IMG/VR virus record: IMGVR_UViG_3300048915_000089
Span: 1 to 64,000 of that record
Direction: 5' to 3' (one strand)
From: a virus
DNA: 64,000 bases
Positions 21,654-36,230 of this stretch are shown here, piece after piece. The notes beneath the pieces are model-generated. The model was not told the DNA's origin, did not search any database, and saw only the letters and a list, made by a program, of their open reading frames with translations. Made by a program: the position numbers and the translations under genes. Each line of letters starts with the position of its first letter. Position 1 is the first letter of the stretch.

Positions 21654-22637
21654 TCACGCAACGATATTGCTGAAGTAATAGCCGAGATCAGCGCCGACCA
21701 ATTGCATGTCGAAAGCCATCTCGGTTTCGGTGCGCACCGTCTTCACGCCGCGCCACGGCATCGGGATTTGATACGTCGCGACGCCCATGTTGTTCATGCC
21801 TTCGCCAAGTCCCGACCATGCGAACGTATAGCCGGCAGTCGGCACCATGATTCCAGGCGCGGGCGCCGTGTAGCAAAGCAGCGCGCTCTTGCCCATGACG
21901 AACGCCATGTTCGCCGCCTGGCCTTCGGCCGCCGTGTTGTAGACGGCTTTCGAGACGAGAATGCGATCGATGTCGAATGCTTCGGCGAGAAGCTGTGGCG
22001 TGATTTTTCCAGCGAACGCCGGGTTCGTGTACTTGATCCGATCGATGACCAGCGGATGTTTCCGGAGCGCCTGATACACCGGATAGGACATCACCAGCGT
22101 GTTGGGCTCCATTCCGGTATTTTGCAGAACGGTGGTTTGCCCAAGCGCGATGTCGGAGAACGGATCGCCGTTCGCGTCGTCGCTCCACAGATACACCGGC
22201 CCGCCGGCAGCGCCGACGACATCGGTGCCCCAAATGCCGGTCTTCATGTACGTTGCCATGAAGATACGATCGCGCCGGATCAGCATTTTCTGCATCAACT
22301 GCCGCGTCGCGACGATATCGAGATCAACAGATTCGTCGGCATTCGCGCGGACCTGCGCGCCGATGTCCTGATGCAGTGCCCAAACCTTAGCGGAGTAAGT
22401 CTGGGTCGCGAGATTGACGCCGGTGCCGGCCGACTCGGTAGCGTCGGCGCGCAACTGCGCTTCGTCGCGGAAGAAGTCAGCTTTCGACCACACGAAGTAA
22501 ACGTCGGTCTGATGCTTAACCGGGATCAGAGGAAAGACTTTGTCGGCGATGTAGACCGACTCATCTTGCCAATAGGCAACTGACACGTCCGTTAGCGCTC
22601 GGCTTACATGGACGTCACCCACTGTGGGCTGTGGCAT
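21654..22637 (-). CDS. Major capsid protein (lambda gpE-like / HK97-fold)
   Basis: 327 aa. N-terminus ALTDVSVAYWQDESVYIADKVFPLIPV is typical of Phage_cap_E-type coat proteins. Preceded by a decoration-like gene. Confidence 0.8.
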   Translation of the reverse strand: MPQPTVGDVHVSRALTDVSVAYWQDESVYIADKVFPLIPVKHQTDVYFVWSKADFFRDEAQLRADATESAGTGVNLATQTYSAKVWALHQDIGAQVRANADESVDLDIVATRQLMQKMLIRRDRIFMATYMKTGIWGTDVVGAAGGPVYLWSDDANGDPFSDIALGQTTVLQNTGMEPNTLVMSYPVYQALRKHPLVIDRIKYTNPAFAGKITPQLLAEAFDIDRILVSKAVYNTAAEGQAANMAFVMGKSALLCYTAPAPGIMVPTAGYTFAWSGLGEGMNNMGVATYQIPMPWRGVKTVRTETEMAFDMQLVGADLGYYFSNIVA

Positions 22638-22749: not shown

Positions 22750-23160
22750 TCAGGGCGCGACGACGCGCGCCTGCAGAACTTCGACGGTGCCGACATCGCT
22801 GAGCACGCCAGCGACGATCGCCTTTGCGCAAGCGAGTTGGCCTGTCGTCGCCGTCACAAGGCGGCCTGACGAGTCGGTTGTCAGAAAATCCTTCGCCGTG
22901 ACGGTGCCGCCGAAAACAGCTTTCGAGATGCCAGAATAGCAGACATCGGCGGCTTCGCCCTGCTTCGGCTTGTTCTGCAGGATGCCGTAAACATCCGTGT
23001 TCGCAGCGTTGGCCAGCAACACCGTGCGATCGGCCGCTGTCGATTGCTTGACGGCAAGAAACTGGCCACTGCCGTTCGGACCGGCCAGGCCAGCGGTATT
23101 CGACAAATCTTGTCCGGCGACTGAATTGCCATCGCGGATCATGACGCCTTCGACTGCCAT
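22750..23160 (-). CDS. Head decoration / cement protein (DUF2190-like)
   Basis: 136 aa, Gly/Ala/Val-rich beta protein immediately upstream of the capsid gene. Confidence 0.65.
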   Translation of the reverse strand: MAVEGVMIRDGNSVAGQDLSNTAGLAGPNGSGQFLAVKQSTAADRTVLLANAANTDVYGILQNKPKQGEAADVCYSGISKAVFGGTVTAKDFLTTDSSGRLVTATTGQLACAKAIVAGVLSDVGTVEVLQARVVAP

Positions 23161-23255: not shown

Positions 23256-24377
23256 TCAGGCCGCGCGACGACGCGCGAGAGCTTCCTCTTTCTTGACTTC
23301 GGCGACGAGATCGGCATTCGCCGGGTTCGTCATCACCTTGGCCCTGGCCTGCTGCGGCGACAGCGACGGGTCGAGTTTGCGGAGCTCTTCGCCCTTCGCG
23401 ACGACTCGATCGTAAGCCGACGCGCCGGTCTTGTTGATGTTGTTGTCGCCGAACTCTTCGAAGATTTTGCCGGTGCGCGCCTGCTCGACCAGTCCCTTGA
23501 TGAACTCGCCGTGCTTCTTGATGGCATCGGCGTCGCCCTCGAACGCTTTCATCATGACTTCGCCGTGGCTCTCCGGCAAGCCGAGATCGGTAGCCTGCTT
23601 TTTGAAAGTGGCGAGCTTGTCGGCTTTCGTGAGCGTCGCAAGCTGCTCGCTCAGCGTCTTGAACAGCGGATTGTCGGCGAGCGCTTTCGCGACGAGCTTG
23701 CCCACATCCTTCTGTTCGTCAGGGTCGACAGCCGGCTTTTTCTTCGGCGGGAACTCTTTGATAAACGCGTCGCGCTCGTCGTCTTTCTTCGCCAGGAATT
23801 CGTCGAGCTTGGCGCCTTCGAGCTCAGCCTTCTTGATGTACTCCTGATGCTCCGACTTGGCTTTGAGCACCAGCACGCCGCGCTGCGCGTCGGTTGCGAC
23901 TTTCGTCAGATCGTCGATCGTCTTCTGCAGCCCGGCTTCCTTCAGTAGGGCCGCGGCCTTCTCCGCATCTGTCATGGTAGCTCCCTTGCTTACCGGGGTG
24001 ATGGCCGTAACCGCGGCCTTGAATGCATCGGACTTCGCGGCCGGCACAAGCTTGCCGAGAAATTCGATGCACTGATTCAGACTTGTTTCGAGCGCCGGCT
24101 GTTGCTCTGCTTCGGCAAAGTTCTTTTCGATCTCCGCAATGGACTTCGCCATTGCACTCTGCGCAGCCGCGACTTTCTGCACGTCGGCGCCGCACTGCAC
24201 GGCAACAGTGAAAATGTTGCTGCCATCCTTGCTGAGGAAGTTCGGCAAATCGAGCACGTCGCTTGCGCTGCGATCGATTTTCATCAGAACGATCTTGACG
24301 CCTTCGCCAGCGCCGCGCGCAACGCTGCTCACTTCGCCAATCTTCAAACGATGCAACAGGTTCACTTTGTCAGGCAT
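23256..24377 (-). CDS. Scaffolding-like protein
   Basis: Long Lys/Glu/Ala-rich coiled-coil sequence between the protease and decoration genes. N-terminal IGEVSSVARGAGEGVKIVLMK motif. Confidence 0.6.
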   Translation of the reverse strand: MPDKVNLLHRLKIGEVSSVARGAGEGVKIVLMKIDRSASDVLDLPNFLSKDGSNIFTVAVQCGADVQKVAAAQSAMAKSIAEIEKNFAEAEQQPALETSLNQCIEFLGKLVPAAKSDAFKAAVTAITPVSKGATMTDAEKAAALLKEAGLQKTIDDLTKVATDAQRGVLVLKAKSEHQEYIKKAELEGAKLDEFLAKKDDERDAFIKEFPPKKKPAVDPDEQKDVGKLVAKALADNPLFKTLSEQLATLTKADKLATFKKQATDLGLPESHGEVMMKAFEGDADAIKKHGEFIKGLVEQARTGKIFEEFGDNNINKTGASAYDRVVAKGEELRKLDPSLSPQQARAKVMTNPANADLVAEVKKEEALARRRAA

Positions 24378-24393: not shown

Positions 24394-25575
24394 TTAAAGA
24401 TTCATCAGATCGTCGACGGATATGCTCGCGCTCTTACCACCGATCGAAAATTCCTTCAATTCGCCGCTCTTGTGCCTGGCCCAAATATCGTCGCCGACTT
24501 TGTAGCCCACCCACCATCCGACGATCTGCTCTCCGCTCGCGGCATCTTTGATCGTGATGCCAAGTGCGGCCTGTTTCTCTTTCGTGAACACGATCGACTC
24601 GACGCATTTGCCGGTGCCAAGGATCTTGTGGCTGTCGCCGTGATCGCGAGCTTCCAGCATGTACTCATAAGCCGCCCGTTCTAGCTCTTCGGGCAGGATC
24701 ATGTCACCTTGCTTGTCAATCACCAAATAGTCGCCTTTTTGGACAACCGACGCCCAGCCGAAAATCAACTGCTGATCTTCGTCCGTTTTGCGGATTTGGA
24801 ACGGCAGTTCCCATTCGACTTCTTTCGCAAGCGACGCGTCTTCGCCTGATAGCCGGCAATATCTGCAGGCGATCGTGTTCTCGCCATCGAGCCACGACGC
24901 CGTTGCACGGTGGTTGCCGTCCGCGAGATAATTCTTGCTGTCATGCCGCACGACGACGGGGAGCTTGTCCGCGCCGTTCGTCCGTATCGATTCGACTTTG
25001 TCCGGCGATACGCGTGGCTGAATTGCGATCAGCGACTTGATCGGAACGTCGCGCTGCTCAAGATCATCGGGGCTTGTGAGCGCCGACAGGAAGCGACGCT
25101 TCTGCGCATCGGGGATTTTGTCGAGCGCTTGCGCGTCATACGGGAACGGGGTGTGAGCGCCGCCGTCTTTGTGGGGCTTCAGCACGCGCTCGGCTTTTGA
25201 GATATCGATGCCGTTCGCTGCAGCAAGAGCGTCGGAAAATAAGCCGGACGATCGACTCAGAACCTTCGCGACATCGGCCGGCACAATCAAGCTGTCGAAG
25301 TCGACGCCTTTCGCGAGCGTCGCCTGGCGAGCCTCAGCTTCGACATCGAAGGCCAGGGATTTGCCCTTTGGTTCAACGACGGCTTCGCCGTCAAGCGCCG
25401 TATTGAAGTCGACAACAGGAAGCTTCCGCTTGCTGTCGCCAGTGCTGGCAATGTGTACGTCGCCAACGCCGATTGTTTTGGCCGCAGCTTCTTCGCCGAT
25501 CGCGGCCGTGAGATACGACGCGAAGTTGGCGTCGCGCTGCCCGAGCACTTTCAAAAGATCAGGTGAGATGTTCAT
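24394..25575 (-). CDS. Fusion protein: N-terminal unknown region + ParB/Srx-like domain + XkdF-type prohead protease domain
   Basis: ParB-like segment VPIKSLIAIQPRVSPDKV...LPVVVRHDSKNYLADGNHRATASWL. XkdF-like segment QQLIFGWASVV...VIDKQGDMILPEELERAAYEYM...DHGDSH. ATGA overlap with MuF. Confidence 0.7.
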   Translation of the reverse strand: MNISPDLLKVLGQRDANFASYLTAAIGEEAAAKTIGVGDVHIASTGDSKRKLPVVDFNTALDGEAVVEPKGKSLAFDVEAEARQATLAKGVDFDSLIVPADVAKVLSRSSGLFSDALAAANGIDISKAERVLKPHKDGGAHTPFPYDAQALDKIPDAQKRRFLSALTSPDDLEQRDVPIKSLIAIQPRVSPDKVESIRTNGADKLPVVVRHDSKNYLADGNHRATASWLDGENTIACRYCRLSGEDASLAKEVEWELPFQIRKTDEDQQLIFGWASVVQKGDYLVIDKQGDMILPEELERAAYEYMLEARDHGDSHKILGTGKCVESIVFTKEKQAALGITIKDAASGEQIVGWWVGYKVGDDIWARHKSGELKEFSIGGKSASISVDDLMNL

Positions 25576-26639
25576 GCCGCTTCTTCCTCCACAGGGGTAT
25601 CAGGAACCATGTCGAGATCAGTTTCGTATTGCACGGTGCAGCGACAGTTCGGATGCACCGGAGGATCGTCAATCGGACCGTCCTCGCTTTCGAAGTCGTC
25701 ACTTAATCCCACCCCATCGGGGTTCATGTCAATGATTGAAAGGCAGATTGGGCAGGTTCTCTCGTCGCGATCGATAAGCCAAATACGCTTTACGGCCGCT
25801 TCCGGAATGACGCCGCGCTCTGCCGCCTGGGTGTAACTGTCTCTCAATCCGGCGTTACCGGCGCGCAGCGATTCGGTGCGCGCGATCGTTGATGCACGGT
25901 GGTCGAGGTAGTTTTCTAGGTACGCGTCGACAGCTTCTTGAATCAAACTATCGTCCAGAAACTCGCCGCTGTCGATCGCGTCCTGTATCGCGCTGTCAAA
26001 CGACGTGTCGCGCAGAGCTCGCCCAAGTGCGTTGCTGTCCAAGTCCTCGAGCGCGCGCCGGTAGCTCGCGACGGCTTGCGCCTGATTCGGCGTGAGCGAG
26101 ATCGTGTCGCGGATGTTGGCGGCGATCTCGTCGAAACTGTCGCCAGCACGAACGCCATCAATCACGACGCTGTTGATCGTGTCTCTCGCGCTATCGCCCA
26201 AGTCCGTGATTAGCGAGTCGACAAGATCCCGCAAACGCTTTTGCGTGCCGGCGTCGAAGCGATCGAAGTCGAAGCCGTCGCCCACATCCTTGCGAAATTG
26301 GCTTGGCCTGTAGCGCAGCCGCTTGCCACCGCGCAGCATCGCGCCAGCAAGCTTCACAGCGCCGTGACGGCCGGCCGCTTCGTAAACATCGCCAAGCAAG
26401 CCGATCGGCTCTTTAAGAACTTCGGCGTAATGATCGAACGCGATCGCGCTGATGACATGCGACGAATTGCCGTGCTGTAACGCATGCGCGACTTTGTCGA
26501 CCGGGACCAATGTCCGCAGATGCTTCAGCGCGCCGTGCATTTTGAGAGCAACGGCCGACTCGTGCTTCTCGGCTAACGCGCGAATCGCGTCGTCAGCAGG
26601 CTGAAAATTCTTCCGCGGTGTAAGTCGGCCACGTCGCAT
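25572..26639 (-). CDS. Head morphogenesis protein (Mu F / SPP1 gp7 family)
   Basis: C-terminal hallmark ERTCPICLS...DPPVHPNCRCTV. Directly follows the portal gene. Confidence 0.8.
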   Translation of the reverse strand: MRRGRLTPRKNFQPADDAIRALAEKHESAVALKMHGALKHLRTLVPVDKVAHALQHGNSSHVISAIAFDHYAEVLKEPIGLLGDVYEAAGRHGAVKLAGAMLRGGKRLRYRPSQFRKDVGDGFDFDRFDAGTQKRLRDLVDSLITDLGDSARDTINSVVIDGVRAGDSFDEIAANIRDTISLTPNQAQAVASYRRALEDLDSNALGRALRDTSFDSAIQDAIDSGEFLDDSLIQEAVDAYLENYLDHRASTIARTESLRAGNAGLRDSYTQAAERGVIPEAAVKRIWLIDRDERTCPICLSIIDMNPDGVGLSDDFESEDGPIDDPPVHPNCRCTVQYETDLDMVPDTPVEEEAA

Positions 26640-28313
26640 CTAGGCCCGCCGTCGTCGCTTGCGCAATCGGTACGTCGCCGCTGAGCCGCCGATCTTCAGC
26701 ACGCGGCGCGCGACTGCGGCGGCGATAGCTTTCTCTAGGTTTGTTTTACCCTGGGGCTCGTCTGTGCCGCCGTTCTGTGCGGCCTGCAGCGCCGCATCGG
26801 CGCCCGCCTGAAGCTGTTGCGTCTTCAGATCGGAGAGCAGCTCATAGTTCGGATCATCCGTCACGTCCGGCATGCCGGCGGCGTCGAGGATAAATTCTTG
26901 CAGCGTGTCGTTCGGGAACAGTGGCATGCCGGCTTGCTGCAGCCGGAGAATGAAATTCGACAGCGTGTCGAGATCGAGCCGCTGCGGCATGTCCGGCTTG
27001 ATGTTGGGGTTCCCCTCCGGGTCCAATCCGTTCAAGTCGCACAGCCGCGGGATGCCATGCCGATTGAGCACGTCGGCGTTCGCGCCCAAAAATCCATCCA
27101 TCGCCTGAAAAAACATATCCGTCTTTGAGACGGCAAGCGCTTGCGTGCCGCGCGACTCGTGCCCCAATTGAATGAAGTCGGCGAGAATACTCGACAGCAT
27201 GTTGACGTTGTAACGCGTGATCGCCTTGTCGGAGTCGACGGCCTGGCCACGGCCGCCGGCCGGAGTGACGAGCTCAAACTTGTAAGCTGGCGCGCCCGCG
27301 CCAGTGCCGCCTGTTTCCTGCAGATCGGACGGAATAATCAAACCCATCTGCTCGTCGACTCGCACGTTCGTCGCGATGCGCTTCCAAGTCTCGACTTGCT
27401 TCGTTGCCTCAACGTCGCCTTCAGCGGCCAAATCAAGCAATTGCTTCGGCACGCTCACAACTGGAATGCCGCCCATCCGTTCGAACAGGATCGATTCGAG
27501 CTCTTCCATGCGCTTGCCGAGATAGTAACTGCGATAGGCGGTGCGCAGGATTGAACGGCCTTCCGGATTGCCTTTGTGGACGCTGGCGCGGAACAACACC
27601 ATTTTTTCGATCGGTATGTCGACGATCGGCCCTGTCCAAGGCTGTTGCGTCATGCCGAGAATTTCGCCGTTGTCGCCGAAGAACCATTTCAAGATCGTGT
27701 CTTGCCCGCGCAACGGCATGCGACGCCAGCGAATCATCCCATCGTCGAATTGACTGCGCGGGAGCTCGCGGCCGTCCTGTCCGTTGCCAGGCCGGCGCCC
27801 GCGACTGCGCTTATAGACGAGTTCATGCGGCGCAAAGCCGTAGCCCAGCATCGAAAGCGATTCTTGAACGAAGTCACTCCAAGTGTGACTCATGTCGTTC
27901 ATGCAGCCTTCGATGAATTCGGCTTGGTACTGTCCGTCAGGCGAGTCGTTGCCTGGCTCTACCCGCCACTCGATTTTGCGAAGCGTCGCATTGATCGCAA
28001 ACATGATTGAGCCGACGACGGACGAATTGTCGAGCATTTCGCGATACACGCGCGCGGCTTCTCTGCCGGCAAGCTGCGGAAGAAACTCTTCGCGGACCCA
28101 GCCGGAGAATTGCCGAAGTCCCGACGAGCCGATGTCTGAGAACGTCATTCGCGTGTCGAATGTCGGGATGCTGTAGCCGCCCATCGTGCGGAGCCGCGGT
28201 GTTGCTGCAGTGGGCGCTGTCGGCAGTGGCGGCACGGCGCTGAAGTCCGCGCGCGGCGTCAAAGCTCGCTTGCGAACGCCATAGCTTGCGGAGACGGTTT
28301 GTTTATATGCCAT
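26640..28313 (-). CDS. Portal protein
   Basis: 557 aa between TerL and MuF, with an acidic/helical C-terminus. Confidence 0.8.
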   Translation of the reverse strand: MAYKQTVSASYGVRKRALTPRADFSAVPPLPTAPTAATPRLRTMGGYSIPTFDTRMTFSDIGSSGLRQFSGWVREEFLPQLAGREAARVYREMLDNSSVVGSIMFAINATLRKIEWRVEPGNDSPDGQYQAEFIEGCMNDMSHTWSDFVQESLSMLGYGFAPHELVYKRSRGRRPGNGQDGRELPRSQFDDGMIRWRRMPLRGQDTILKWFFGDNGEILGMTQQPWTGPIVDIPIEKMVLFRASVHKGNPEGRSILRTAYRSYYLGKRMEELESILFERMGGIPVVSVPKQLLDLAAEGDVEATKQVETWKRIATNVRVDEQMGLIIPSDLQETGGTGAGAPAYKFELVTPAGGRGQAVDSDKAITRYNVNMLSSILADFIQLGHESRGTQALAVSKTDMFFQAMDGFLGANADVLNRHGIPRLCDLNGLDPEGNPNIKPDMPQRLDLDTLSNFILRLQQAGMPLFPNDTLQEFILDAAGMPDVTDDPNYELLSDLKTQQLQAGADAALQAAQNGGTDEPQGKTNLEKAIAAAVARRVLKIGGSAATYRLRKRRRRA

Positions 28314-28316
28314 CGT

Positions 28317-29882
28317 TCACCCCGGAAACTCTCTGGGACTGCCTACCACAATCGCGCCGGATAGCACAGCCTCGGCACCGCTTTGCCCGAATGCATAAAT
28401 GATCGCTTCGCCCTCGTCTGGCGATCGTCCGATGCGTTCTTTTGTCTCTTCCTTTTCTTCGACCTTAATGCCGCGTGCTGTCAATTCATAGCGCGGCGCG
28501 GCGAGATCAGTCAGGACTGTGCGCTCCGGCGGCAGAGCAATATCCATCCCGCTCGTCGGGTCGAGCGCTTCGCGCAACCGCCATATCCACAGCGCGCGCA
28601 TGTTGAAAAACCGAAGCTTCGTTCCCTTGGCAAGAGCCCCGGTCTTCTTTCTTCCGTCCATTGAGCGAATCGGAAGCTTGAACAGTTTGCCGATGTCTAC
28701 CGGCGAGGATCCGATGCCGATCACGTCGACATGTATCGGAGCGATCTCCCCTCCTAGAATGTTGACGACATCGCGGATCACAGCAACGCCGTCAGGAGTC
28801 GTGCGGCCAGGCTTCTTGACGACGCGAGAAAACCAATTGTGGTAACGCTTACAGATCGTCGTCTTGTCGATACCGCCGCGCGCTGGGTCGCACCCGACTT
28901 GACTGAGCTTGCCGCGTTTGCTCGCCGGCAGATCAACCCATCGCTTTTGCGCGGCTTCGATCCACGCTGTCGGAATGATCTGCCACGGGTGGTCAACTTG
29001 GCCCAAGCCGAACTTGCCGTAAAGCATCAACGATCGGAGCGGTTCGGGGAACGCCTGCAGCGTCGCTTTATAGCCGGACGCCATCAAGATCGGATTGTCT
29101 TCGACGCGCGACGGAAAGAACGTGCGCGACTTCGGCTCTATAAGCTCTTCAGTGCCGTCTTCGTTACGCCACCAGAACGGCAAGCCGTTGCGCACCTCGC
29201 GCTCAGCGCCGCCCAGCATCGCGTACCAGCGGAGCTCGCCAGGCATCGCCGGCCGTGGGTGCTTCTCGTCAAGCCACGGCCCGAAATAGCCGATAACCCA
29301 ATCGCCTTCCGCTGTCGTTGGCGGATTGAAGCCGGCGACGATTCGCGATCGTTGATGCTGTCGCGTTGTTCGGTTCCAGCCCGAGAGGTAGCGAAACTGA
29401 TATTCGGTAAAGAACGGAAGTTCGTCGAAGCCCTTCAGATCGTGAGCGCGGCCCTGATACTTGCCGACGTCCTTTTCTTCGTTGACGCCGCCGAACTCGA
29501 CCATGCGGCCGTCGAATTCGTCCAGCCACCATCTGTGCTTCTGGCCATTGAAGCGGCCCTTGCCGTTAAACAATTCGTAAGCTCGCGACTCCAAGCCTTC
29601 AAGCTGCGCTTTGTCGCGACGAAAAATAATAGATCGGTAATGCGCCGTGTGCGCCAAGCCGAGCATAAGATCAGTCTTGCCACCGCCGGCGGCGCCACCG
29701 AAGCCGGTTACATCAGCTTCGCTTTGATAGGCTGCTTCCTGGGGACTGCCCGGGAACGGTTCCCACGGCACCTCCGCGATCAGAAGCGCGTCGAGTTCTG
29801 CGCGCTCGCGCGGTGTCAAGAAGTCCAACAATTCGCTGAACTCTTTCGGCGTTTGTGATTCCTGCAGTGTTGAATTCAGCAT
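28317..29882 (-). CDS. terL: Terminase large subunit
   Basis: Walker A GFGGAAGGGKTDL. Start taken at MLNSTLQ (29882); an alternative ATG lies at 29921. Overlaps the TerS frame by about 170 nt. Confidence 0.85.
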   Translation of the reverse strand: MLNSTLQESQTPKEFSELLDFLTPRERAELDALLIAEVPWEPFPGSPQEAAYQSEADVTGFGGAAGGGKTDLMLGLAHTAHYRSIIFRRDKAQLEGLESRAYELFNGKGRFNGQKHRWWLDEFDGRMVEFGGVNEEKDVGKYQGRAHDLKGFDELPFFTEYQFRYLSGWNRTTRQHQRSRIVAGFNPPTTAEGDWVIGYFGPWLDEKHPRPAMPGELRWYAMLGGAEREVRNGLPFWWRNEDGTEELIEPKSRTFFPSRVEDNPILMASGYKATLQAFPEPLRSLMLYGKFGLGQVDHPWQIIPTAWIEAAQKRWVDLPASKRGKLSQVGCDPARGGIDKTTICKRYHNWFSRVVKKPGRTTPDGVAVIRDVVNILGGEIAPIHVDVIGIGSSPVDIGKLFKLPIRSMDGRKKTGALAKGTKLRFFNMRALWIWRLREALDPTSGMDIALPPERTVLTDLAAPRYELTARGIKVEEKEETKERIGRSPDEGEAIIYAFGQSGAEAVLSGAIVVGSPREFPG

Positions 29883-30333
29883 CGTCAGGGCGACGCCCCT
29901 CTTCGGACAAGCTAAGATCAACTTGCTCGCGCAAGCCTAGCCTCGTCTTCATAAGAAAAATCAAAACGGCCTTATCCGGCAATACCTCAGCGCGCATCAC
30001 TTTGCCAGCGTGAACGTGGCCAGGCGGGTAATACTGCACTGGCGAGCCGAGCGCCATCGTGAGTCCGGCTTCGCCCAGCTTCGCCTGCACCTTGGCATCG
30101 CCGATCATCAACTCTTTGCCGTAGTGCTTGCGCAGCGTCGGCGCTGAGATGCCGATGAACGCCGCAATCGCGCGATGCTTCAAGCCGTAGCCGGCGAGGA
30201 CTTCGACGTTCGTTCGCTGCTGTGCTGTCGGCTCATGTTCCGGACGGCCACCAGTATCGATCTCGTCGGCGTCAATCTGCTCGCTCTCGTCGACGATCTC
30301 GCCGTCGATCGGCGTTTGCGTTTTCTTAACCAT
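29713..30333 (-). CDS. terS: Terminase small subunit (HTH)
   Basis: First gene of the late block. HTH-like LKHRAIAAFIGISAPTLRKHYGKEL. Position upstream of TerL. Confidence 0.65.
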   Translation of the reverse strand: MVKKTQTPIDGEIVDESEQIDADEIDTGGRPEHEPTAQQRTNVEVLAGYGLKHRAIAAFIGISAPTLRKHYGKELMIGDAKVQAKLGEAGLTMALGSPVQYYPPGHVHAGKVMRAEVLPDKAVLIFLMKTRLGLREQVDLSLSEEGRRPDDAEFNTAGITNAERVQRIVGLLDTARARRTRRASDRGGAVGTVPGQSPGSSLSKRS

Positions 30334-34689: not shown

Positions 34690-34718
34690 CCCCGCCTTCA
34701 GGCGGGGTTTTTCTTTTT
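34690..34718 (+). terminator. Rho-independent terminator of plus block iii
   Basis: CCCCGCC (34690-34696), loop TTCA, GGCGGGG (34701-34707), then TTTTTCTTTTT. The loop contains the stop codon of the convergent ParB-MTase gene. Confidence 0.7.
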
Positions 34719-36230
34719 GAAGATCACGATCACTTCGCCGTCCTCGCTCAGCGTCTTGTTGTAATTGTTAATCATGCCGGTGCCGCGCGTCTCGGCATAT
34801 TCGAGGCCGCATGTACCGGCGATCTCTTTCGCCGTCGACTCCAATGGATGCGTTTGATTGCCGATCTGCAACGCGAAGCTCGCGCTTGGCTTCAGCGCTC
34901 GCGCTACCGATTGGATCATCGGCGCATAAAATCCAGCCACCCATTTGTCGAAGTCCGGATAGAGCTTCCACGAACTCTCGTCGCCGCCGTACTTCTCAGT
35001 GTTGAAATACGGCGGGCTCGTCATGGCGAAATCGATCGATGCCGATTTCGGCTTGGCGCGTTCGAACGGCTCGCAAACAAGCTGAGCCGTCTTGTCGAAT
35101 GCGGCCAGCTTGCGGAGATCGCGGTACATGTCGTTAACGCCGCGATACGTCTTCGGGTCAACGTCATATCCGGTGTAGTGGCTCACGTTCTTTGCGAGCA
35201 GGAAGCCGAGCATGCGGCCGCCCCACCCATGGCACGGATCAAGCACGCTCGCGCCTGGCGTCGTGCAGAACTCGTCGTAAAGCGAGCGCGCGAGATCAAC
35301 TGGAAACTCACCCGGCAATCTGTGCCGATGAATCGCGAGCGTTTGGCCAAGCATCTTGTCCAGCTTCGGCTGGCCTTGGCATAGGAACATGAGCGACTTG
35401 ATAAACTCGTCGCGCCGGCCGCACGTCGCCAGAAAGTCGCTGAGCGACCCTTGCGTGTCGCCGTTGATGTCGACGCGGTGCGGCGTATAGGCCAGGGTGG
35501 CGGCAGACGGAATGCTGTTGCCGTAGAATCGCGCGCGCAGAAAGTAAACGGCGAGCGCGCCCTTCGTGTAGCTCGTCGAAACGAAGCCGAGAGACTCGCG
35601 CTTCGCCAAGATCCCGGTCCACTCTTTTGTCATCACTCGCCAGGCGCTCAGCAACACCGCCAGTTCGGCTTCGGTGAGATCGCGATCCTGTGCGCCGTCA
35701 CCGCCGGCCGGCGCTTGCGCCGTCTTGCCGTCGCCAAGGCCGGAGACGAATTCAACAAGTTCAAGCTCCGGAAAGCCGAGCAAGTCGAGATCGAAATTCA
35801 GCTTCTTCAATTCGACGACTTGGCCCTTCAAGATCGCTTCGTCCCATCCGGCCGTCAACGCGATCTGATTATCGGCGATCACGATCGCCATCTTGTCGGC
35901 GTCGGACAAGCCGGCGCGAACGACGACAGGCACTTCGTCGAGCCCGAGCAACATCGCCGCTTCGGCGCGGCCGTGACCGGCGAGAATCATATCGTGCTCG
36001 TCAATCAACATCGGCTGGGTGAAGCCGAATGTCTTGATAAGCTTCGCGAGCGTTTCGATCTGCGCTTGATCGTGCGTCCGCGGGTTGTTCGGATACGGTT
36101 TTAGCTCTGAGAGTTTGCGCCGCTCAGTCGGCCCCGCCATCCAGATCGCGAGGGACTTCGCGCCGTCCGACCACTCCGCAGTTTGAATCTGCACGGCTTT
36201 ACTTTTTGCAGCTTTGTCGGCTGAAGGCAT
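34698..36230 (-). CDS. ParB N-terminal domain fused to SAM-dependent DNA methyltransferase (N6-A/N4-C type)
   Basis: ParB segment LKPYPNNPRTHDQAQIETLAKLIKTFGFTQPMLIDEHDMILAGHGR. MTase motif I VLDPCHGWGGR and motif IV AMTSPPYFN. Confidence 0.85.
   Translation of the reverse strand: MPSADKAAKSKAVQIQTAEWSDGAKSLAIWMAGPTERRKLSELKPYPNNPRTHDQAQIETLAKLIKTFGFTQPMLIDEHDMILAGHGRAEAAMLLGLDEVPVVVRAGLSDADKMAIVIADNQIALTAGWDEAILKGQVVELKKLNFDLDLLGFPELELVEFVSGLGDGKTAQAPAGGDGAQDRDLTEAELAVLLSAWRVMTKEWTGILAKRESLGFVSTSYTKGALAVYFLRARFYGNSIPSAATLAYTPHRVDINGDTQGSLSDFLATCGRRDEFIKSLMFLCQGQPKLDKMLGQTLAIHRHRLPGEFPVDLARSLYDEFCTTPGASVLDPCHGWGGRMLGFLLAKNVSHYTGYDVDPKTYRGVNDMYRDLRKLAAFDKTAQLVCEPFERAKPKSASIDFAMTSPPYFNTEKYGGDESSWKLYPDFDKWVAGFYAPMIQSVARALKPSASFALQIGNQTHPLESTAKEIAGTCGLEYAETRGTGMINNYNKTLSEDGEVIVIFKKKNPA

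Follow-up and report, generated by a model that had tools for sequence, protein, structure and literature searches.

The internal proteins and Alt of phage T4 carry an N-terminal capsid-targeting sequence that is cut by the prohead protease gp21, and the cargo is delivered together with the DNA. The polyvalent proteins of phages and conjugative elements were defined by Iyer et al. 2017 (PMC5512222), with ParB-superfamily domains and MuF among the hubs of the domain network. The same study argued that the polyvalent proteins of phages are packaged into the head, and for the ParB domains it favored a role in sensing or degrading nucleoside triphosphates (NTPs) over a role as DNase. It also described assemblin-like peptidases at the C-termini of polyvalent proteins; XkdF goes unmentioned. 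DdrB of phage P1 is found in heads in a processed form, and its processing has been linked to packaging (PMC5512222). Phage prohead proteases have further been reported to cleave and activate the cGAS/DncV-like nucleotidyltransferases (CD-NTases) of the cyclic-oligonucleotide-based antiphage signaling system, CBASS (Hobbs and Kranzusch 2026, bioRxiv 10.64898/2026.03.04.709575). Here we analyze a gene from a stretch of viral DNA of 64,000 nucleotides (IMG/VR record IMGVR_UViG_3300048915_000089, positions 1 to 64,000; the whole stretch is called the window below). The open reading frame (ORF) encodes a putative XkdF-family head-maturation (prohead) protease of 393 amino acids (aa), in which a ParB/sulfiredoxin (Srx) domain precedes the XkdF domain. 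Our preferred explanation, to which we assign a probability of about one half, is that the ParB/Srx domain is accessory effector cargo that rides on the prohead protease and stands outside the assembly machinery.

A ParB/Srx fold in the middle of the protein

The middle domain has a ParB/Srx fold and is the size of Srx. In an AlphaFold2 (AF2) model of the whole protein, built on 61 homologues, blocks of ten residues over aa 131–240 have an average predicted local distance difference test score (pLDDT) of 94–98, with at least 95 over aa 171–240. The core (aa 173–241) runs strand-strand-helix-strand-strand-helix-strand, which is the fold of the ParB/Srx superfamily. An extension of 40 residues (PFPYD...ALT) precedes this core, and the folded domain covers approximately aa 131–241. 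All 50 matches listed by Foldseek in the PDB are ParB/Srx-superfamily proteins or are annotated as ParB-like. They include Noc (7nfu, E=2.7e-4), ParB with cytidine diphosphate (CDP) or CTPgammaS, the serine kinase SerK, SbnI, PadC, KorB and Atu1540, together with human and plant sulfiredoxin (template-modeling score of 0.63 for Arabidopsis Srx, normalized on the target). In BFVD the matches include phage "ParB/Sulfiredoxin" proteins and several viral proteins that align across both domains of our protein. The preliminary description of this locus, made from the sequence alone, had called the middle segment ParB-like and proposed profile and structure searches; the structure searches bear it out. 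The order of an N-terminal part, a ParB domain and XkdF that it had read from the sequence stands as well. The fold, however, starts at about aa 131 and not at about aa 170, and the N-terminal part is only about 127 aa long and contains a VGDVH motif.

Profile searches connect the domain to several described families through its relatives. Among 33 homologous domains, PF23719 is found in 28, PF08857 (ParBc_2) in 23 and DUF1015 in 15. Some relatives exceed the curated cut-offs, with 27.9 bits (P0023), 29.7 bits (P0125) and 40.5 bits (P0196) for ParBc_2 and 45.2 bits (P0196) for PF23719. The DdrB-like ParB profile (PF18763) matches none of the 33 domains at E≤0.05, and the AF2 model has no extra DdrB-type helix with a conserved Tyr between the helix at 221–229 and the strand at 234–241. 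Neither the whole protein nor the profiles of its two domains had a meaningful sequence match in the PDB, and there were zero matches for the 393-aa protein in NCBIfam.

Polar residues that vary little or not at all occupy the places of ParB boxes I and II. Q186 and R188 in IQPRV resemble the "QPR" of ParB box I, and D219-G220-x-H222-R223 resembles either GERR of box II or GGCHR of Srx. G220 is invariant and R223 nearly so, which gives the Gly-x-x-Arg phosphate-binding motif of the superfamily. In a profile comparison with hhalign, DG(N/H)HR falls on AGHGR of the canonical ParB_N domain that is encoded elsewhere in the window. In the extension, P143 and T167 are invariant and F144 and A165 nearly so, and Q158 and R161 hardly vary across the domain alignment. 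The position of the catalytic Cys of Srx is taken by N221 in the window's clade and by H in most relatives, and there is no conserved Cys. After aa 241 the chain continues with a linker of 16 residues and then XkdF, without a helix-turn-helix (HTH), box III or C-terminal dimerization domain. Hence, the domain is neither a sulfiredoxin nor a partition ParB: we rejected a sulfinic-acid reductase because the Cys is missing and DG[N/H]HR stands in place of GGCHR, and a partition or clamp ParB because the HTH, box III and dimerization domain are missing. The domain most likely binds or hydrolyzes a nucleotide, either an NTP or a nucleotide signal.

One could also argue that the domain is an inert relic, a degenerate fold retained only as a spacer. 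The window's copy is indeed sub-threshold in Pfam, and its clade has N221 where most relatives have H. A relic is nevertheless extremely improbable, since the model confidence is very high, and sequences with no more than 34–77% identity to the window's copy keep the pocket residues with little or no change. Along the lines of the preliminary description, the domain might instead act on DNA, as a ParB-like nickase or DNA-end binder that protects or modifies the incoming genome. Non-specific nuclease or nicking activity has been reported for some ParB-superfamily domains (PMC5512222), and a homologue from Rhizobium phage RHph_Y5A carries the GenBank label "DNA methyltransferase/prohead protease protein". 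The word "methyltransferase" in this label is an annotation artefact that stems from the similarity to ParB-methyltransferases. Our domain is Srx-sized and lacks an HTH or any other DNA-binding domain, the role preferred for polyvalent ParB domains is NTP sensing or degradation rather than DNase activity (PMC5512222), and the phage has a separate canonical ParB_N-methyltransferase at 34698-36230. We therefore give a DNA-directed function very little weight.

The slot in front of XkdF and its occupants

A word-indexed search with the protein gave 132 relatives, about 20 of them full length. Local hidden Markov models found XkdF in all of the 120 matches listed and the middle domain in 72 of these as well. 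Among 1.84 billion cluster representatives, 2178 proteins matched a profile of the middle domain at E≤1e-3, 98 of them even at E≤1e-30. XkdF lies further along the chain in 81 of the 106 representatives (76%) listed with a full-length middle domain.

The shortest (basal) XkdF proteins, of 216–270 aa, consist of the N-terminal motif, a linker and XkdF alone. This makes the middle domain an insert in a slot. The general plan of XkdF proteins is a short N-terminal "VGDVH + K/R" (lysine/arginine) motif, then a slot of variable content, then XkdF at the C-terminus. In species-representative genomes the middle domain was present in none of 68 XkdF loci, a sample that consists mostly of Clostridia prophages and is biased by the search patterns. 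A scan of the genome collection with the single 393-aa protein confirmed no relative. For the XkdF family at large, the ParB/Srx domain is dispensable. That the domain is not part of the canonical assembly pathway had been claimed before and agrees with both the basal members and the sampled genome loci.

The slot can hold other domains. Acb1 (an anti-CBASS phosphodiesterase family, PF23474) occupies it in P0094 and P0100, and in P0165 Acb1 stands beside the ParB/Srx domain, with XkdF in the same chain. In all, we noted Acb1 fused N-terminally to XkdF in P0094, P0100, P0101, P0095 and P0165. InPase precedes the ParB/Srx domain and then XkdF in P0049, and in other relatives His_Phos_1, ChaB, PBECR1 or Acb1 accompany the ParB/Srx domain ahead of XkdF. 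The ParB/Srx domain itself is duplicated in tandem ahead of XkdF in several relatives (P0121-P0126, P0023, P0174, P0034) and can stand hundreds of residues away from it. XkdF is also joined to MuF in one chain (P0070) and followed by a Zeta toxin (L006, 7338-9503); P0093 was noted alongside these two and P0049 among the other XkdF architectures.

Where XkdF is missing, the full-length ParB/Srx domain is fused to an ADP-ribosyltransferase (ART) exotoxin domain (P0151) or a Zeta toxin (P0171). A search of viral contigs for the ART fusion P0151 found nothing. The ParB/Srx core, often in several copies, also occurs in proteins of about 1600–4600 aa. Distant "core-only" relatives start after the extension. 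Core-only copies are repeated four to five times in the 2072- and 4638-aa proteins (P0196, P0206). Three of the giant proteins are informative: they carry MuF, or NUDIX with ParB_N and ART-PolyVal, or a 2H phosphoesterase. Most partners of the ParB/Srx domain are enzymes that act on nucleotides or phosphates (InPase, NUDIX, phosphatase, phosphodiesterases). Thus, the domain is exchangeable with, or accompanied by, recognized effector domains, which fits the cargo concept of Iyer and Aravind. At least two unrelated effector-type domains, a late-gene or packaging context and the common domain network are all found, as is characteristic of polyvalent proteins.

The same partners bear on the main rival to our explanation. 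The domain could act late, in the cytoplasm of the producing cell, as an antidote that binds or degrades a nucleotide signal or its precursor and is fused to the CBASS-triggering protease for matched time, place and dose. Since prohead proteases are reported to cleave and activate CD-NTases (bioRxiv 10.64898/2026.03.04.709575), a fusion of Acb1, and perhaps of the ParB/Srx domain, to the protease would make sense without packaging. The presence of Acb1 in the same slot (P0094, P0100), its place beside the ParB/Srx domain in P0165 and the nucleotide and phosphate enzymes among the partners are what such an antidote would lead us to expect. Members of the family are, however, found together with MuF and with toxins of the kind that is typically injected, and we consider this late role unlikely. 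The protein must enter the procapsid anyway, and a late role and packaging are not mutually exclusive.

It is also unlikely that the domain serves assembly or regulation. ParB N-domains dimerize upon binding cytidine triphosphate (CTP). CTP- or CDP-bound ParB structures are among the PDB matches. By analogy, nucleotide-gated dimerization or a pro-domain switch could keep the protease from acting before it has entered the procapsid, or the domain could dock the protein to the scaffold, portal or MuF. Such a module would account for the 76% of listed full-length-domain representatives that are fused to XkdF and the N-terminal extension specific to this subfamily; the position of the domain ahead of ART and Zeta enzymes would fit an adaptor. 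Yet most sampled XkdF proteases do without the domain. It can be duplicated in tandem, stand hundreds of residues from XkdF or occur in up to five copies in giant proteins, which is atypical for a dedicated regulator. The conserved polar pocket suggests ligand chemistry, and the predicted template-modeling score (pTM) of the whole-protein AF2 model is 0.47 with both domains confident, which gives no sign of a fixed interdomain contact. Absence, duplication and displacement of the domain in relatives are our reasons for regarding an assembly or regulatory role as less likely.

A motif common to the protease and the capsid protein

The first 127 residues of the protease are mostly predicted with low confidence by AF2 but contain a strongly conserved motif at aa 32–53, in which K/R residues and Pro come after VGDVH. 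Of 59 aligned sequences, 57 have H41. Basal XkdF proteins that lack the ParB domain have the VGDVH + K/R motif as well.

In a six-frame translation of the window, the pattern [GAS]D[VAT]H[VIAM] matches at two places only: in the protease (TIGVGDVHIAST) and, with an identical core, at the very N-terminus of the capsid protein (MPQPTVGDVHVSRALT). In related loci, the protease and capsid motifs are more alike within a locus than between loci, for example MSQPNFSNVHVNAP / MSQPSASAVHVDSP and MPNPTAGDVHVNVP / MSDPGSGDVHVPGV (permutation p of about 0.006 on 8 partly related loci, a small and related sample). The occurrence in both proteins suggests that the protease mimics the N-arm of the capsid protein for its own incorporation, or that the two proteins have a recognition site in common. 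We propose that the N-terminal motif is a capsid-targeting or recognition element; a targeting role would be analogous to what is described for cargo proteins in other phages only in part, as discussed below.

The XkdF domain and the scaffold-like protein

The C-terminal part of the protein was recognized as XkdF in the preliminary description, and Pfam agrees. PF14550 ("putative phage serine protease XkdF") matches aa 260–384 over profile positions 4–124 of 126, at 57.6 bits (cut-off 24) and E=1.7e-15. H316 and S377 are invariant and would be the candidates for the His-Ser catalytic pair of an assemblin/HK97-like serine protease. The domain also matches PHROG families of head-maturation proteases. 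The gene lies between the portal and MuF genes and the scaffold and capsid genes, which is the position in the head module expected of XkdF. We found no match to a second protease in Pfam or PHROG among the seven neighboring head-module proteins that were scanned. XkdF is a large family with no solved structure, and in the literature we found no report of proteolytic activity of XkdF on scaffold or capsid proteins.

The gene that follows the protease may hold the rest of the fold. The scaffold-like protein opens with ...KIGEVSSVARGAGEGVKIVLMK, a motif of the form E-V/I-S-x-V-D-x-P/G-A-N.... Where related loci have a scaffold-like gene next to XkdF, that gene starts in the same way, and so does the gene that follows XkdF in the genome loci from outside the Clostridia; the loci are L001, L002, L003, L015, L017, L019, L021, L022, L027-L029, L060, L069, L087 and L092. 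It matches the end of the HK97-type Peptidase_S78 profile (positions ~128–159 of 165; E=0.0065 and 0.13), although below threshold. When the XkdF domain and the N-terminus of the scaffold are joined artificially, the product shows a weak, collinear similarity to the Peptidase_S78 profile (PF04586) across the junction (E=0.05, likewise sub-threshold). The protease fold may thus be split between two genes, with the scaffold supplying the missing part in trans; the poor model at the conserved FSIGG of the XkdF domain would then be accounted for as well. We rejected a fusion of protease and scaffold by read-through or frameshift, as the two ORFs are 16 nucleotides apart and in different frames. 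The relatives likewise have one ORF for the protease and another for the scaffold, which lie end to end or share a few bases.

Proposed effector cargo on the putative prohead protease

Our argument for an effector is built on the conservation of the pocket, the position in the head module, the dispensability of the domain and its exchange with, or the company of, effector domains that mostly act on nucleotides and phosphates. Delivery could proceed as follows. Because the protease must be built into the procapsid, its cargo would go in with it. The protein would enter the procapsid with the protease, possibly through an N-terminal motif that mimics the N-arm of the capsid protein. There the protease would free a compact domain of 12–13 kDa by cuts in the flexible segments aa 54–130 and aa 242–257; the second of these, the interdomain linker, is a candidate autoprocessing site. 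The freed ParB/Srx domain would stay in the head and reach the next cell with the DNA. This injection step, taken alone, is less certain than the effector-cargo reading as a whole. The preliminary description, in which the protein was a possible virion-packaged effector, is confirmed in what it observed and partly supported in how it interpreted it.

There are several points that weigh against effector cargo on a prohead protease. First, the window's own middle domain lies under every curated cut-off in Pfam, ParB clan families included; PF23719 ("VapB-like") comes up at 21.8–24.6 bits against a cut-off of 27. Second, the basis of the "protease" label is the family name, the PHROG labels, the gene order and the weak S78 similarity. 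A model of XkdF alone reaches a pTM of 0.74, but its pLDDT falls below 50 exactly at the invariant FSIGG, the region of the presumed catalytic serine. Compared with the PDB by Foldseek, this model gave no protease or other significant fold (best E=0.17), and the XkdF domain has zero relatives in the PDB by sequence. Third, prohead proteases often digest themselves and exit the capsid, in which case the fused domain could be lost too. Fourth, the version of the protease in Rhizobium phage lacks the N-terminal motif; the motif therefore cannot be the sole targeting route, and the sample of loci in which it co-varies with the capsid motif is small and related. Fifth, a literature search for the family turned up no proteomic study of virions, no mapped cleavage site and no enzyme assay.

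Should the domain arrive with the phage DNA or work next to the protease, a ParB/Srx-type nucleotide enzyme would join the short list of phage counter-defense activities, and the prohead protease itself would prove to be a vehicle for effectors. One could go further and suppose that XkdF phages possess a three-part programmable capsid-delivery device. It would consist of an entry peptide that copies the N-arm of the capsid protein, a free slot for any small effector and a protease whose fold takes its missing part in trans from the first strands of the scaffold protein. The ParB/Srx domain would then represent a new enzyme class, delivered in virions or tethered to the protease, which blunts immunity based on nucleotide signaling by depleting or sequestering nucleotides. 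We think that this full picture is distinctly unlikely. The interchangeable slot, which holds ParB/Srx, Acb1, InPase or phosphatase domains, offers a simple means of mining new anti-defense domains, by collecting what follows the VGDVH motif up to XkdF. Fusions of Acb1 to XkdF are of current interest, given the recent report that prohead proteases trigger CBASS, in which we saw no mention of such fusions (bioRxiv 10.64898/2026.03.04.709575).

The head module in the window

The gene for the 393-aa protein directly follows the MuF gene. Its ATG overlaps the TGA of MuF (ATGA) within GCGGCATGAACATC, and GGAGGA stands a few bases upstream. The ATGA coupling reported earlier is thereby confirmed by the junction sequence, at the coordinates given in Table 1. 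The start codon is supported by N-termini that are conserved in the approximately 20 full-length homologues. MuF in the window is a gene of its own, merely coupled translationally to the ParB/Srx-XkdF gene.

Table 1. Coordinates of the features discussed in the text, as positions in the window
Feature	Position	Strand	Basis or remark
Major capsid protein, E-like	21654..22637	(-)	phrog_1005 E=3.9e-85
Capsid protein N-terminus, aa 1-16, MPQPTVGDVHVSRALT	22590-22637	(-)	carries the N-terminal motif of the protease
136-aa protein	22750..23160		downstream of the scaffold-like gene
Scaffold-like protein, 373 aa	23256..24377	(-)	begins 16 nt past the stop codon of the protease
Scaffold-like protein aa 8-35, LHRLKIGEVSSVARGAGEGVKIVLMKID	24273-24356	(-)	resembles the last strands of S78 proteases
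ParB/Srx-XkdF gene, 393 aa (N-motif / ParB-Srx / XkdF; putative prohead protease with cargo)	24394..25575	(-)	ORF list, homologues, synteny
XkdF (Peptidase_S78_2, PF14550) domain, aa 258-385	24421..24804	(-)	Pfam, PHROG, invariant columns
Invariant S377 in FSIGG	24445-24447	(-)	
Invariant H316	24628-24630	(-)	
Interdomain linker, aa 242-257, partly disordered, conserved L-x(6)-[LMV]-K...W pattern	24805..24852	(-)	pLDDT <50 at aa 245-256; column profile
ParB/Srx core, aa 172-241, beta-beta-alpha-beta-beta-alpha-beta	24853..25062	(-)	Foldseek PDB and BFVD, Pfam clan matches, hhalign
DGNHR motif, aa 219-223	24907-24921	(-)	
QxR motif (Q186, R188)	25012-25020	(-)	
ParB/Srx N-terminal extension, aa 131-171 (LKPHKDGGAHTPFPYD...RRFLSALT)	25063..25185	(-)	pLDDT, conserved columns; subfamily-specific
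Conserved N-terminal motif, aa 32-53 (AKTIGVGDVHIASTGDSKRKLP), VGDVH core then K/R patch	25417..25482	(-)	
VGDVH core, protease aa 37-41	25453-25467	(-)	
MuF-family minor head protein	25572..26639	(-)	PF04233 E=3.7e-14; phrog_3517 E=6e-51
Mu-type portal	26640..28313		upstream of MuF
Large terminase (TerL)	28317..29921		upstream of the portal

The order of the head module is TerL, Mu-type portal, MuF, ParB/Srx-XkdF gene, scaffold, a protein of about 130 aa and the E-like capsid protein. The same order from TerL to the major capsid protein is repeated in three metagenomic loci, and the part from the protease through the scaffold and small protein to the capsid protein also occurs in the cultured Rhizobium phage RHph_Y5A. 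Elsewhere in the window lie tail genes and genes for a tape measure, a primase-helicase, methyltransferases and an exonuclease, which marks the DNA as a siphophage-like genome or prophage; its head genes are in a lambda-like order. There is no near-identical phage in INPHARED and no close relative among the deposited phages.

Three further observations concern the window outside of the protease gene. A canonical ParB is encoded at 34698-36230 (-), with ParB_N (aa 40–121, E=6e-8) and an N6/N4 DNA methylase (aa 399–508). ARAGORN calls a tRNA-Ala (cgc) at 29310-29394 (+), antisense within the TerL ORF, which is probably a false positive. The listed TTG start of TerL makes the ORF overlap a terminase-small-like ORF (29713-30333) by about 200 nucleotides (29713-29921), and the true start of TerL is probably further downstream.

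Comparison with known systems

We found no study of an XkdF and ParB fusion in the literature. The protein is all the same less new than the preliminary description had implied, because the class of Iyer et al. 2017 and annotated Rhizobium phage proteins of the same architecture already exist. The protein from Rhizobium phage RHph_Y5A (QIG73366.1, 245 aa) and its relatives combine ParB/Srx with XkdF, with 32% identity to our protein over aa 127–380, and are likewise followed by a scaffold-like gene, a small gene and capsid protein E. Unlike our protein, they lack the N-terminal 127 aa including the VGDVH motif. Phage 7-7-1, by contrast, is irrelevant to the comparison: its ParB is a separate protein and its protease is of the HK97 type.

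With Srx and the N-terminal CTPase domain of ParB, Noc and KorB, the middle domain has in common the fold, the size of Srx, the strand-Gly-x-x-Arg-helix motif and a QxR that resembles box I. It differs in that the catalytic Cys, HTH, box III and dimerization domain are missing and in its extra N-terminal extension of 40 residues. DdrB of phage P1 is similar to our protein in that a ParB-superfamily domain is joined to a peptidase in a head-associated protein. However, its ParB domain belongs to another family, its peptidase is zincin-like and DdrB is not the capsid maturation protease. For the T4 internal proteins and Alt the likeness is to the delivery that we propose, with the difference that here cargo and protease would form one polypeptide and that targeting by the N-terminal motif is only a proposal. 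The Acb1-XkdF fusions (P0094, P0100, P0165) have the same layout of N-terminal motif, slot and XkdF, and P0165 also carries ParB/Srx; their slot family has a known anti-CBASS activity, whereas none is known for the ParB/Srx domain.

A further comparison is with the polyvalent proteins (PMC5512222). Like these, our protein is found in a late-gene, head-module context, combines a ParB-superfamily domain with a C-terminal virion-maturation peptidase and draws on the same repertoire of partners (MuF, ART, Zeta, 2H, InPase, PBECR1, NUDIX). Unlike these, it is a minimal version with two domains, apparently the only prohead protease of its phage, and in our scans does not match the DdrB-like profile (PF18763). 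Assemblin-like peptidases at the C-termini of polyvalent proteins were already part of the description by Iyer et al. 2017, and the protein in the window therefore belongs to a described class. It is a small, previously unexamined member of the class that was outlined in 2017.

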